NCBI GenBank assembly: GCA_025060395.1
Contig: JANXCC010000004.1
Location: 37,454-101,453, forward strand
Source of the DNA: Candidatus Bipolaricaulota bacterium
Lineage (GTDB): Bacteria > Bipolaricaulota > Bipolaricaulia > RBG-16-55-9 > DRXL01
Direction: 5' to 3'
DNA length: 64,000 nucleotides
The first letter of the stretch is position 1. The number at the start of each line of letters is the position of its first letter. Positions 21,291 to 26,261 of this stretch are shown here, in pieces. A program made the translations under genes and the position numbers. The notes beneath the pieces were generated by a model, which was not told where the DNA came from, did no database searches, and saw only the letters and a program-made list of their open reading frames with translations.

Positions 21291-22706
21291 TCATCCACCA
21301 CCGCCCACGCCAGCGACAAAGCCCCCTTGCGTCATCTTGCGCACGTCTAAGATCTCGTCGAGCTTCTTTGGAGGCAAGAGCTTCATCTCCAGGACGACTT
21401 CGCGGATCGTCTTCCCTTCGGCCATCGCTCGCTTCACGACTTCGGCAGCCTTGTCGTAGCCGATATACGGGTTGAGCGCCGTCGCTAAGATCGCATTTTG
21501 ATGAGCGAGACGCTCCATCTGCTCGCGATTGGCAATAATGCCCGCAATGCATTTATCAGCGAAGACACGACACGCATTGCTCAAGATCGTGACAGCCTGC
21601 AAGAGATTGTGCGCGATCACGGGTAGAGCGACGTTCAGCTCAAAGTTCCCCGATGCCGCGGCTTGAGTGACGACGACGTCATTGCCCATCACTTGCATCG
21701 CGACCATCATGACGGCTTCGGGGATGACGGGATTGACCTTCCCCGGCATGATCGACGAACCAGGCTGGAGCGCGGGAAGCCGAATTTCTGCGAGGCCTGC
21801 TTGTGGGCCGGAGTTCATCCATCTCAAATCGTTGGCGATCTTGTAGAGCGCCACGGCTAAAGCTTTGAGCGCGCCGCTCAGCTCGACGGCGGTCTCCATC
21901 GTCGCTTGCGCCGCGAAGTGATTGCGCGTCTCTCTGAAAGTGATCTTTGTCTCCTGGGCGAGCGCTTGAGCAATTCTCTGACCAAATTCCGGATGGGTGT
22001 TGATTCCCGTGCCCACGGCCGTGCCCCCAAGCGCAAGTTCATAGAGTCTGGGTAAGACAGCTTCGATGCGCTCGCGTGCGAGCGCAATCTGTGTAGCGTA
22101 CCCGGAAAATTCCTGCCCCAGCGTGATGGGCATGGCGTCCATCAAATGGGTGCGCCCCGTCTTGACGATATCTGAGAATTCTCGTGCTTTCGCTTCGAGA
22201 GCTTTTTGAAGGTGCTCTAACGCCGGGAGAAGCTGCTCGTGCACGGCTAACGCTGCCGAGATGTGCACGCAGGCGGGGATGACGTCATTGGAAGACTGCC
22301 CCAAATTGACGTGATCGTTCGGATGCACGGCTGTTTTATCGCCGCGCTTGACGCCTAAAATCTCGCACGCGCGGTTGGCGATCACTTCGTTGGCGTTCAT
22401 ATTCGTCGAGGTGCCTGAACCCGTTTGGAAGATATCTATGGGGAAGTGTTCATCGAGCTTGCCATCGACGACCTCACGAGCGGCTTGCTCAATGGCTTTG
22501 GCATGGATCTCGTCGAGCAGCTTGAGCTGATAGTTGACTCTCGCCGCGCAGAGCTTGACTAACCCTAACGCCCGGATGAACGTACGAGGGAAGCGTATTC
22601 CGCTGATGGGAAAATTCTCGACAGCGCGCTGAGTCTGCGCGCCCCAGTAGGCGTCCTGTGGGACTTTCACTTCGCCGAGGGAGTCCTTCTCGATGCGATA
22701 GTTCAT
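21291..22706 (-). CDS. fumC: class II fumarate hydratase
   Basis: ATG 22706 with [24 protein letters not shown]... and the [11 protein letters not shown] signature. 471 aa. Confidence 0.95.
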
Positions 22707-22838
22707 AATAAATCTCCTCTCTTGTCTTTGAGCTACATAAAGAAGTATAAGTGAAATGCGGTCTGTCAGCAATGACACCAGGCAGACTTCAACTCTTGCT
22801 CGTGGTTTCGAGTATAATTGTTTTGGGAGGCAGCAAGC

Positions 22839-24389
22839 ATGGCAGTCCAGGCAGCTGCTACGGCGGAGAAGCCCTGGCTTACAGGGACTGTCACGATTCT
22901 CTTTAGCGATATCGAGGGCTTTACTGACTACACGGGGCGTGCGGGAGATGCGGCTGCTTACCAACTCTTGCAAGACCATAATGCTATCATTCGGGAAGAA
23001 CTCCAGCGTTATGGCGGGATAGAGGTCAAGACTCTTGGGGATGGATTTATGGCGGTCTTCTCCAGCGCACGCGCCGCAGTCCTCTGCGCTGTGCAAATAC
23101 AGAAGCGCCTCACTGAGTATGCCCAGCGCTATCCCGAAACGCCCCTGCGGGTGCGCATCGGGCTCCATGCGGGAGAGCCCATTGCTCGTGAGCAAGACTT
23201 TATCGGACAAGCCGTCAATATTGCCGCGCGCATCACTGCCTGTGCTCAAGGGAGCCAGATCTGGGTCTCCGATGTAGTGCGCCAATTGGTCGGCCATATA
23301 GAAGGGATTCGCTTTGAGGAGCGAGGCTGGAAGGATCTCAAAGGGGTGGCAGAGCGCCAGCATCTTTATGAAGTCATCTGGGAGGAGAGCTCATCAGCTC
23401 AGCCTCCTGAGCTCTCGTACTGGCTTAGGGAAGAAGAAGTCACGATTCGACAGCGCTGGCGTGGCCAAGCCCAGATCTTCATCCATCTGAAAGGCTGGCG
23501 CTTGTTATGGGCTAGCTTGCGATTGCTCTTCCGGCGCCGTCATCTTGCCATATTGGCTCCTTTTCTGACTACTATGATCATCTACTTCACGTTCAGCTAC
23601 TTTGCTTATGGCCCCCCTGTTCTGATAAAAGAACCTGCTACCCCTGCTCAAGAAGGCTCACAGCCACGTATCAGAGCGACGGTCAAGTTTGAACCACAAT
23701 TCCTTGAGAGCGTCCTTGAGATCCTCATCCTAGCTCTCATTAGCCCTCTGATCGCAGGCATTACGATCCGGATGGTGATGAATGCTGTAGAGCGACAGAA
23801 GCTCCTTCCTGTTCCCGAATTGCGCCAACTTATCCTAAAAAGATATGGAGGGCTGCTCAAGGCAAGCTTGGCTTACGTGGGGCTGAGCACTTTGGGAATC
23901 ATAGGGCCACCTTCTCTCGCGTATTATCTCGTTTTTCAGCCATTGGGGGTTCCCAACGATTGGCGGATGGTTCTGGGGCTTCTGCCTTTGGGTATACCAG
24001 GAGGGATAGCCTTTTTACGATGGGCTCTCTACCTGCACGCGACGCTTATAGAAGGGCGAGGGCCATGGGAGAGCCTCCGCTGGAGTTGGCACGCCACCCG
24101 AGGGAATGCGGGCGCAATCGCGGCTATAGCGTTCATCCCCTCCCTCGTAACTTTGCTTGTCTTCTCACCGTTGTATAATTTCATTACACTTGTCGTTCAA
24201 TTTACAAAAGATCAGCCGCTTCCTATAGCTGTGAAGGCTGCTTGGCAGTCGGGAGCAAATTTCGCATTTCACTATGAACCGCTGGTGATGCTGATCAACC
24301 CTTGGACGTGGGCGGCATTAACGCTGGCTTACTTGCAACTGCGTGAGGGGATGACGCGCTGGATTGCTCAACAATCGAGGAGGACGTGA
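22839..24389 (+). CDS. class III adenylate/guanylate cyclase domain fused to a C-terminal ~6-TM domain
   Basis: ATG 22839 with [28 protein letters not shown] and AVNIAARI in the first ~190 aa. About 6 hydrophobic spans after residue ~220. Confidence 0.8.
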
Positions 24390-25207
24390 TGGAACGCATT
24401 CGGACTGCAGCCGTTGCCGGAAGTTTTTATCCCGCAAGCTCAGAGCGCCTGCGCAAGACTGTTGAGACGTTGCTCGCTCAAGCACAGCCTAAGACGCTCG
24501 AGGGCAAACTGCGAGGCCTGATCGTGCCCCATGCAGGGTATATCTACTCGGGGCCAATAGCCGCGACAGGGTATAAGCTCCTTCAGGACCTCTCCTCTAG
24601 CCCCTTGAAGGAAGGGGGCCAGGAGATGAGGTCTCTTTTGCTCGGTCCAGCGCATTATGTTTACTTCGTCGGCGCGGCCACTCTAGACTGCGACGCGTGG
24701 CAGACCCCGCTCGGTTTAATACAATCTGCAAGAGACTTGATCGCCCGTGCTCTAGAGTGTGGCGATCTTCAGAATAATCCCGCTGCCCACGTCCCAGAGC
24801 ATTCTCTAGAAGTACAGCTCCCCTTTGTGCAGACGGTGCTTCCCAACTGCGAGATCTTTCCGATCTTGACCGGCGAATGTGACTATCGCGAGCTGGCGCG
24901 CACCCTAAGCCCATATATTGATGACATAGATCTCGTCATCGTCAGCTCAGATCTGAGTCACTATTATCCCTATGAAGAAGCTCTTAAGCGCGACGCGCTC
25001 GCGCATCGAGCGATTGAACACTTCGATTTCGATCTGATGGAGGATCGCGTTGAAGCTTGCGGTAAGACAGCTATTTTGACGCTCATGCGGATCGCTAAAG
25101 AGCGGGGCTGGAAGGCCAAGCTCTTGAACTATCGTAACTCCGGAGACACAGCAGGGGATAAATTCCGTGTCGTGGGCTACGGGTGCTATGCGTTCTATGA
25201 GGAGTGA
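24389..25207 (+). CDS. AmmeMemoRadiSam system protein B (MEMO1-like)
   Basis: AAVAGSFYPAS...GLIVPHAGYIYSGPIAA. The ATG shares one base with the cyclase TGA. GAGGAGGA lies upstream. Confidence 0.85.
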   Translation: MERIRTAAVAGSFYPASSERLRKTVETLLAQAQPKTLEGKLRGLIVPHAGYIYSGPIAATGYKLLQDLSSSPLKEGGQEMRSLLLGPAHYVYFVGAATLDCDAWQTPLGLIQSARDLIARALECGDLQNNPAAHVPEHSLEVQLPFVQTVLPNCEIFPILTGECDYRELARTLSPYIDDIDLVIVSSDLSHYYPYEEALKRDALAHRAIEHFDFDLMEDRVEACGKTAILTLMRIAKERGWKAKLLNYRNSGDTAGDKFRVVGYGCYAFYEE

Positions 25208-25211
25208 AAAG

Positions 25212-26261
25212 ATGATCGTCACCCTAGCAGAGCTACTCGATGCGCGCACACGCCCAGGCGAACTCTACGAGAAGCTCGAAGAGAATAGAGTACGCTGCTA
25301 CGCGTGCGCCCATCGCTGCGTGATCTTTGATGGAAAACGGGGCATCTGCCAGGTGCGCTTTAATAGAGACGGAAAGCTCTACGTGCCCTGGGGCTATGTC
25401 AGCTCGCTAGGGCTCGACCCAATAGAGAAGAAGCCGTTCTATCACGTCTTGCCTGGCGCACGCACGCTCACCTTCGGGATGCTCGGATGCGATTTGCACT
25501 GTCCATACTGCCAGAACTGGGAGATCTCACAGACACTGCGAGACAGAAACGCTGGTGCCCTCCCGCATGACGTCACCCCAGAAAAGTTAGTCAGCCTCGC
25601 TCGGCGCTCCGGCGCGCGCGCTGTCATCAGCTCCTACAATGAGCCATTGATCACTTCAGAATGGGCCATCTCGGTCTTTCAAGAAGCCAAGAGATTTGGT
25701 CTGCTGACAGGCTACGTCTCCAACGGCAACGCGACGCGCGAGGTCTTGCAGTATCTGCGCCCATATCTCGACTGCTACAAGATAGACTTAAAGACCTTTC
25801 AAGACAAGAACTACCGTGTGCTTGGAGCAGTCTTGTCTAGAATCTTAGATGGCATCGGAATGGTGCACGACCTGGGCTTTTGGCTGGAGATTGTGACGCT
25901 AGTTGTCCCAGGGTTTAACGACTCCGACGATGAGCTGAGACAGATCGCGAAATTTTTAGTTTCAATATCGCCGGATATCCCTTGGCATGTGACGGCTTTT
26001 CACAAGGACTACAAGATGACTGACCCAGAGAATACCCCCGCGGGGACGCTCATTCGAGCAGCCCAGATCGGCTACGACGCAGGACTGCACTTCGTCTACA
26101 CGGGAAATCTCCCCGGCATGACCGGACGATTCGAGAACACCTACTGTCCAGGCTGTGGGGCGCTGCTCATCGAACGCTATGGCTTTGCCATCTTACAAAA
26201 CAGACTTCGCGATGGGCATTGCCCCGACTGCGGGCAGGCAATCCCGGGAGTATGGGCTTAA
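25212..26261 (+). CDS. AmmeMemoRadiSam system radical SAM enzyme
   Basis: CDLHCPYCQNW (CxxxCxxC), an N-terminal Cys cluster CYACAHRC and a C-terminal CPGCG...CPDCG. Confidence 0.85.
   Translation: MIVTLAELLDARTRPGELYEKLEENRVRCYACAHRCVIFDGKRGICQVRFNRDGKLYVPWGYVSSLGLDPIEKKPFYHVLPGARTLTFGMLGCDLHCPYCQNWEISQTLRDRNAGALPHDVTPEKLVSLARRSGARAVISSYNEPLITSEWAISVFQEAKRFGLLTGYVSNGNATREVLQYLRPYLDCYKIDLKTFQDKNYRVLGAVLSRILDGIGMVHDLGFWLEIVTLVVPGFNDSDDELRQIAKFLVSISPDIPWHVTAFHKDYKMTDPENTPAGTLIRAAQIGYDAGLHFVYTGNLPGMTGRFENTYCPGCGALLIERYGFAILQNRLRDGHCPDCGQAIPGVWA

Follow-up and report, generated by a model that had tools for sequence, protein, structure and literature searches.

Introduction

Class III nucleotide cyclases are the main makers of cyclic AMP (cAMP) and cyclic GMP in bacteria and eukaryotes, and all of them need their catalytic domains to pair head to tail. 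How a membrane anchor controls catalysis in these enzymes is an active question, the anchors having only recently been shown to be receptors; to our knowledge, all well-studied cases have an N-terminal membrane module that signals through a rigid helical transducer. In Rv1625c, Rv3645 and the mammalian membrane adenylate cyclases, six transmembrane (TM) helices are followed by a transducer or HAMP element and then by the cyclase. Class IIIc members are recognised by a shortened arm between the GxHxGE strand and D-x-x-G, the nearest ones here being Rv1900c (LipJ), Rv1264 and Ma1120. Ma1120, which we take to be a characterised adenylate cyclase, is soluble and has little beyond its cyclase domain, while in LipJ the cyclase sits at the C-terminus, behind a lipase-like domain; neither possesses a membrane domain. 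Here, we describe a gene with the reverse arrangement, located at positions 22839 to 24389 of a 64,000-nucleotide stretch of contig JANXCC010000004.1 from a Candidatus Bipolaricaulota bacterium (assembly GCA_025060395.1; hereafter the window, by whose positions all features are given). Its product is a class IIIc cyclase confined to one lineage, and the membrane domain at its C-terminus is of the UPF0259/GPDPase_memb type.

Published work has shown that the membrane anchors of such enzymes can serve as receptors (PMC4821796, PMC11606603). These anchors have been sorted into six clusters, described as cytochrome-b-like, HAMP-linked, Rv1625c-like, eukaryotic and CqsS-like (PMC4821796), descriptions from which the present family would seem to differ. 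Like the canonical membrane cyclases, the window protein combines a six-helix module, short and poorly conserved outer loops and a dimerising class III domain. However, the order of its parts is reversed, its membrane domain belongs to a different family from the canonical anchors, and a variable linker and an amphipathic helix stand in place of the cyclase-transducer element or HAMP domain, which leaves it outside the canonical membrane cyclases. It shares an extreme N-terminal catalytic domain with the Rv0386 type (cyclase, NB-ARC/STAND, TPR or helix-turn-helix) and with a bitopic type (cyclase, one TM helix, ectodomain), but the partners in those proteins are soluble STAND ATPases or one TM helix with a non-membrane domain; among the 265 nearest cyclase-domain proteins, a polytopic C-terminal domain is found only in the present family.

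A class IIIc catalytic domain at the N-terminus

The open reading frame (ORF) list of the window gives a single open frame from a TTG at 22818 to 24389 on the forward strand. Translation probably begins at the ATG at 22839, for a product of 516 amino acids (aa) ending at a TGA stop; homologues start at the equivalent Met with the sequence MA(V/T/A), and one of them, from NCBI, is annotated as a hypothetical protein in a Candidatus Bipolaricaulota metagenome-assembled genome. The gene and the features at its 5′ end are as follows.

22839 to 24389, forward strand: whole cyclase gene, encoding a class III cyclase domain followed by a six-TM domain (516 aa)
22825 to 22830, forward strand: Shine–Dalgarno sequence GGGAGG, 8 nt 5′ of the ATG at 22839, read directly from the sequence
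22884 to 23378, forward strand: class III (IIIc-like) cyclase homology domain, residues 16–180, from Pfam, NCBIfam and PDB matches

A preliminary description, made from the sequence alone, had placed a catalytic domain about 20 residues after the ATG, and our searches located it from residue 16 onwards. Residues 16–173 match Pfam Guanylate_cyc (PF00211; E value 7e-23, 81.6 bits vs a cut-off of 21.9), and among the NCBIfam models the cyclase part of LipJ scores best (E value 5e-36, 124 bits). The best matches among solved structures are Ma1120 (4wp3/4wp9; 4wp3, E value 3e-30) and LipJ (Rv1900c, 1ybt; E value 8e-27), both gapless over approximately 165 residues (166 for Ma1120). They share with the window protein the short class IIIc dimerisation arm (GLHAGEP to DFIG), which here comprises six residues (PIAREQ) between GLHAGE and DFIG. 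With Ma1120, LipJ and Rv1264 as its closest matches, the domain falls within class IIIc.

The metal-binding Asp, Lys and Asn/Arg motifs quoted in the preliminary description are all present. Following the established class III motif pattern, D24 (FSDIEGFT) and D68 (GDG in VKTLGDG/GDGF) are the metal-binding Asp residues, K64 (VKTLGDG) and D120 (DFIGQ) the adenine-specifying pair, and N127 and R131 (AVNIAARI) the transition-state pair; none of them varies in seven homologues, the most distant of which share 40% identity. The V-N-x-A-A-R motif is canonical in the window protein, whereas the Asn of Ma1120 is shifted by two positions. The Lys/Asp pair fits an adenylate, not a guanylate or pyrimidine, cyclase, so that cAMP would be the product, and the complete catalytic set suggests that the enzyme is probably active, in agreement with the adenylate cyclase first proposed.

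A predicted six-helix domain behind a variable linker

The cyclase domain is followed by approximately 300 residues with six predicted TM helices, much as had been described. The parts of this C-terminal half are listed below.

23379 to 23492, forward strand: linker, residues 181–218, variable in sequence and length and predicted to be disordered
23493 to 23543, forward strand: basic amphipathic helix [17 protein letters not shown], residues 219–235, before TM1 on the predicted cytoplasmic side
23544 to 24347, forward strand: six-TM domain, residues 236–503, from hydropathy, Lys + Arg counts, Pfam and hhalign
23769 to 23846, forward strand: TM2–TM3 loop, predicted cytoplasmic, residues 311–336, with the motif R-M-x-x-N-A-V-E-x-Q-x-L-L and a length fixed at 26
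24036 to 24107, forward strand: TM4–TM5 loop, predicted cytoplasmic, residues 400–423, [24 protein letters not shown], a hallmark of the membrane superfamily
24285 to 24347, forward strand: TM6, residues 483–503, with the motif L-I-N-P-W ... T-L-x-Y-L-x-x-R-E, the most conserved helix

The linker has 11% invariant columns, is 12 residues shorter in two homologues (P0006 and P0007), and returns a predicted local distance difference test score (pLDDT) below 50 for residues 184–223; no HAMP or coiled-coil match and no transducer element was found in it. The amphipathic helix is better conserved (41% invariant columns), has a hydrophobic moment of 0.53 over residues 219–231, and is helical in both AlphaFold2 (AF2) models that we computed. 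These models are poor (full-length protein, seven sequences, mean pLDDT 57, predicted template modelling score 0.44; membrane domain, eight sequences, pLDDT 49) and only helix positions were taken from them. Together with hydropathy, they place the TM helices at approximately residues 236–254, 292–310, 337–357, 375–399, 424–446 and 483–503. Predicted inside segments carry 15–21 Lys and Arg residues vs 6–8 outside in all seven homologues, and the predicted topology is N-in, C-in, which would place the catalytic domain in the cytoplasm. The two inside loops are constant in length, at 26 and 24 residues, whereas the outside loops span 36–46, 14–18 and 36–48 residues.

Conservation is unevenly spread over this domain. 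TM6 has 52% invariant columns, the 311–336 loop 42% and the 400–423 loop 25%, compared with 44% for the catalytic domain and 6–11% for the outside loops, in which no recognisable ligand-binding domain was found. The two cytoplasmic loops also differ in their relation to other proteins: the motif N-A-V-E-x-Q-x-L-L at residues 315–323, in a loop that aligns poorly to stand-alone relatives of the domain, was seen only in the cyclase-fused clade and appears to be specific to it, while the motif of loop 400–423 (the loop quoted in the preliminary description, [21 protein letters not shown], corresponds to residues 403–423) lies inside the Pfam GPDPase_memb match region and is common to the stand-alone proteins of the phylum.

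The resemblance to UPF0259 and the membrane domain of glycerophosphodiester phosphodiesterases that had been suspected is real but distant. In the window protein, residues 391–460 match GPDPase_memb (PF10110) below its threshold (E value 7.9e-5, 22.0 bits vs a cut-off of 29.6), and the protein scores under the cut-off of DUF7847 as well (PF25231; E value 0.03, 14.0 bits vs 28.7). However, all nine family members match GPDPase_memb in the same region (best E value 1.3e-7) and five of the nine match DUF7847 (best E value 3.3e-10), and the precomputed annotation of the protein database gives PF25231 for P0001–P0005. A profile of the membrane domain run over 184 species genomes of the phylum returned weak stand-alone matches (ORFs of 215–290 aa) in 51 of them, centred on TM4-loop-TM5, and an hhalign comparison of the fused domain (A2) with five stand-alone proteins of approximately 220 aa (A4) gave 95.2% probability (E value 2.5e-8) over 161 columns covering TM2–TM6, with TM6 aligned to the last TM helix of these relatives; one of the stand-alone proteins matches UPF0259 weakly (E value 1e-4). 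What PF10110, PF25231 and UPF0259 (PF06790) share with the window protein is the TM4-loop-TM5 motif P-G-x-x-x-x-x-R-x-x-L-Y ... E-G ... E-x-L-x-x-S-W-x-x-T-x-G-N and a conserved last TM helix. From these profile matches, the domain is best described as a distant homologue of GPDPase_memb, DUF7847 and UPF0259, not a curated member. PF10110 is, by its family description, the membrane domain of glycerophosphodiester phosphodiesterases, whereas the partner here is a cyclase.

The same genome encodes a stand-alone paralogue of 225 aa that carries the TM4–TM5 loop motif, including S-W-x-x-T-x-G-N (GPDPase_memb, E value 2.9e-5; superfamily comparison, E value 1.7e-4). It lies on C44 (L051, 182–1836), approximately 20 kb upstream of the window. 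Directly before it comes a proline dehydrogenase gene, whose stop overlaps the start of the paralogue, and the two are apparently co-transcribed. Our literature search returned no functional paper on GPDPase_memb, UPF0259, DUF7847 or the cyclase fusion architecture, and a word-indexed search with the membrane-domain profile returned the family itself only, with no other fusion partners visible.

Rarity and single origin of the fusion

The combination is not a common, already described architecture. We searched 1.84 billion representative proteins exhaustively with HMMER and obtained 65,773 matches to the cyclase domain, among which full-length matches form three clusters only (P0006, P0123 and P0008); P0138 (297 aa) covers just the membrane part and may reflect a gene call that was cut short, not a stand-alone form. 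Within the phylum, the fusion occurs in 6 of the 184 species genomes: the genome under study, one other of 13 in the same genus (in which the gene is split), one from a sister genus and three from another family of the same order. When 262 cyclase domains were placed in a FastTree phylogeny, those of the eight full-length members grouped as a single clade with a Shimodaira–Hasegawa (SH)-like support of 92, from which we conclude that the fusion arose once; the tree and the occurrence data fit a single origin with a patchy distribution.

The surroundings of this clade qualify the statement, made in the preliminary description, that the domain order is inverted. Its sister group (weak support, 79) is made up largely of small 2TM-cyclase-type proteins, and the clade beyond that (support 90) has many members in which an N-terminal cyclase precedes one predicted TM helix. 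Among the 265 proteins closest in their cyclase domain, 60 have an N-terminal cyclase and extend beyond it by 100 residues or more at the C-terminus; in 26 of these 60 the extension has exactly one predicted TM helix, and those that we read go on to a non-membrane domain. The second cyclase of the same genome also has its catalytic domain at the N-terminus (see below). The inverted order is therefore ordinary in this branch, and what is unusual is the polytopic C-terminal partner: three or more C-terminal TM helices occur in this family alone among the 265.

Genomic context and cyclic nucleotide signalling

The genes around the cyclase, and the segment by which the locus differs from those of its relatives, are the following.

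21291 to 22706, reverse strand: fumC, class II fumarase, divergent neighbour across a 133-bp spacer (Pfam Lyase_1, FumaraseC_C)
22756 to 24385, no strand assigned: 1630-bp indel segment consisting of the cyclase gene and an 83-bp leader, from tblastn synteny in L036–L043
24377 to 24383, forward strand: Shine–Dalgarno sequence GAGGAGG of the Memo-like gene, within the last cyclase codons, read from the sequence
24386 to 26261, forward strand: Memo-like gene (24386 to 25207; Pfam Memo, E value 5.5e-49) and radical SAM gene (25167 to 26261; Radical_SAM, E value 1.4e-16)

The cyclase stop overlaps the Memo start (GTGATG), and the same 1-nt overlap is found in L001 and L019. In seven genomes of the same genus that lack the cyclase, fumC is directly divergent from the Memo-like gene (the spacer in L038 is 64 bp), showing that 22756–24385 is a clean indel. 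A functional link between the cyclase and the Memo-like and radical SAM genes was considered and set aside as probably incidental, since these seven genomes keep fumC, Memo and radical SAM without the cyclase and other copies of the cyclase lie elsewhere. Housekeeping genes flank the locus, and no genes of mobile elements were found nearby. The radical SAM gene after Memo encodes 364 aa in the window and 795–802 aa in L002 (8385–10793) and L019 (7408–9795), where the long copies match Intein_splicing and LAGLIDADG and thus contain an intein.

Five contexts of the cyclase were seen, and a gene for a 141-aa cyclic nucleotide monophosphate (cNMP)-binding protein adjoins it in three of these, which represent two unrelated settings in relatives. 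In context A (P0005), the fumC side has an extra divergent copy of this gene; in context B (P0006 and P0007), the order is M20 peptidase, cyclase, convergent 141-aa cNMP-binding gene and a metallo-beta-lactamase-fold gene. Other copies lie beside butyrate kinase and phosphotransbutyrylase (G097) or 3-hydroxyacyl-CoA dehydrogenase (P0008). G097, a genome of the same order, also encodes a microbial rhodopsin of 298 aa (L047, 13530–14426; Bac_rhodopsin, E value 6e-42) approximately 5 kb from its cyclase.

The genome under study has its own version of the context-B locus, without a cyclase, on C33 (L010, 601–3221), consisting of a metallo-beta-lactamase-fold gene (244 aa), the 141-aa cNMP-binding gene (L010, 1402–1827) and a convergent M20 peptidase; the same locus holds the cyclase in the relatives L004 and L021. 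The 141-aa protein has an intact phosphate-binding cassette (FGEMAL...PRSA) and comprises a cNMP-binding domain only, with neither a TM segment nor a TIR domain. The C33 and L004 copies are approximately 85% identical by eye, whereas the respective cyclases are 51% identical. The metallo-beta-lactamase-fold gene always adjoins the 141-aa gene (L004, 8028–8762; L021, 2197–2910; L010, 601–1335); its product returns generic Lactamase_B matches and a faint match to Apyc1 (20 bits vs a cut-off of 50), and a role as a cyclic nucleotide (cAMP) phosphodiesterase is a guess on our part.

Across the 1.7-Mb genome (88% complete), we counted 15 cNMP-binding ORFs vs two class III cyclase domains, and no membrane-bound cyclase other than the window gene product was found. 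The second cyclase (C11; L049, 3005–5758) is a protein of 917 aa with cyclase, NB-ARC/STAND and TPR domains. A literature search on cAMP in Bipolaricaulota returned nothing relevant.

Proposed mode of action and alternatives

We consider it probable, though well short of assured, that the protein is a membrane-anchored homodimeric class III (IIIc-like) adenylate cyclase that is controlled via its membrane domain. The catalytic domain would be cytoplasmic and connected through a flexible linker of approximately 35 residues and an interfacial amphipathic helix to a six-helix membrane domain with both ends in the cytoplasm. Head-to-tail pairing of two catalytic domains would create two symmetric ATP sites, and membrane tethering, probably with dimerisation of the membrane domain, would bring the catalytic domains together. 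The superfamily hallmarks kept at TM4-loop-TM5 and TM6 suggest that the membrane domain retains a function of its own, as a superfamily member and not a degenerate anchor, with a conserved surface that would be formed by the cytoplasmic face and TM6. It would probably sense something within or at the membrane and pass the signal on either through cytoplasmic loops touching the catalytic dimer, the 311–336 loop with its fused-clade-specific motif being the best candidate contact, or through an altered dimer geometry; the helical transducer of the canonical membrane cyclases would not be involved. The cAMP would then be read by the many cNMP-binding proteins of the genome, including the 141-aa single-domain protein. 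A bolder version, in which the six-TM module acts as a genuine receptor, new in kind for class III cyclases, and an intramembrane or membrane-proximal cue controls the catalytic dimer via the cytoplasmic loops, with no transducer, seems to us possible but doubtful.

Several observations weigh against control through the membrane domain. The cytoplasmic motif is mostly common to the stand-alone relatives and hence need not have evolved to contact a cyclase, and the variable, probably disordered linker fits passive tethering as well as regulation. Interdomain contacts and the dimer were unreadable in the AF2 models. The cyclase gene is dispensable in most genomes of the genus, its cNMP-binding neighbour is absent at the window locus and in two other contexts, and no RNA-seq run was found to contain the cyclase gene.

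The alternative that survives these data best is that the six-TM domain serves only to fix and dimerise the cyclase, with activity being constitutive or set elsewhere (by substrate, bicarbonate, pH or expression). A linker with no transducer element and outside loops of short to medium length, poorly conserved and with no recognisable ligand-binding domain, are what such an anchor would be expected to show, and the occurrence of the membrane part either N-terminally (2TM) or C-terminally (1TM) in the same cyclase clade suggests loose coupling between the two. Nevertheless, if the domain were an anchor and nothing more, its hallmark motifs, its cytoplasmic loops of constant length and its 42–52% invariant columns at an overall identity of approximately 40% would be unexpected, and the NAVE-Q-LL loop motif is specific to the fused clade; on balance, we regard a passive role as unlikely.

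We also considered the opposite arrangement, with the membrane domain as effector (through a transport, lipid or enzymatic activity) and the cyclase serving it as a local cAMP source or an ATP-sensing module. The membrane domain does keep the hallmarks of stand-alone proteins that work without a cyclase, one of which is the paralogue apparently co-transcribed with proline dehydrogenase in the same genome. However, the invariant catalytic residues argue for turnover and not mere nucleotide binding, cyclic nucleotide receptors are abundant in the genome and recur beside the cyclase, and the literature offered no function for the superfamily. This arrangement therefore appears improbable.

A phage-defence cyclase of the Pycsar type, making a pyrimidine cyclic nucleotide that is sensed by the neighbouring cNMP-binding protein, is very improbable, and we rejected it. 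PycC has a class III-like fold and a patchy distribution, as does the window protein, whose occurrence is indel-like, and PycC often stands beside a cNMP-binding protein; the small 141-aa protein matches the cNMP part of the PycTIR models, and the metallo-beta-lactamase-fold gene with its faint Apyc1 likeness is present in context B. The PADLOC PycC models match weakly, though (best E value 5.8e-12, 43 bits), with the general Pfam and LipJ models scoring far higher (81.6 and 124 bits). Furthermore, the purine Lys/Asp pair is intact, the cNMP-binding neighbour lacks any killing domain of the TM or TIR kind and is missing from the window locus altogether, and the surroundings are housekeeping genes and not mobile elements.

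Finally, an artefactual fusion or pseudogene (a frameshift, a mis-assembly or two genes taken as one) can be dismissed for practical purposes, given that Logan contigs of the runs X1 (depth 135) and X3 (depth 25), which belong to two different hot-spring metagenome studies, span 22600–24600 with 0 differences and 0 gaps and that at least eight colinear full-length homologues (484–526 aa, 38–77% identity) come from different samples, on unrelated contigs in NCBI, JGI, ENA and Logan, the one copy in favour of such an artefact being that of G074. This copy (G074:C62; L026, L048), the sole other one in the genus and of the type-B lineage, is broken up over two ORFs (405 and 146 aa), which could reflect a frameshift, a pseudogene or an assembly error.

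Implications

The family offers a conserved natural case in which the membrane module comes after catalysis, has no transducer and belongs to a different family from the canonical anchors, and it would show whether another coupling geometry works. If the membrane domain is a true receptor, cAMP would be the first assayable output for the widespread UPF0259/GPDPase_memb/DUF7847 superfamily and would allow stimulus screens. For this hot-spring member of the Bipolaricaulota, the protein would be one of two cyclases feeding 15 cNMP-binding proteins.

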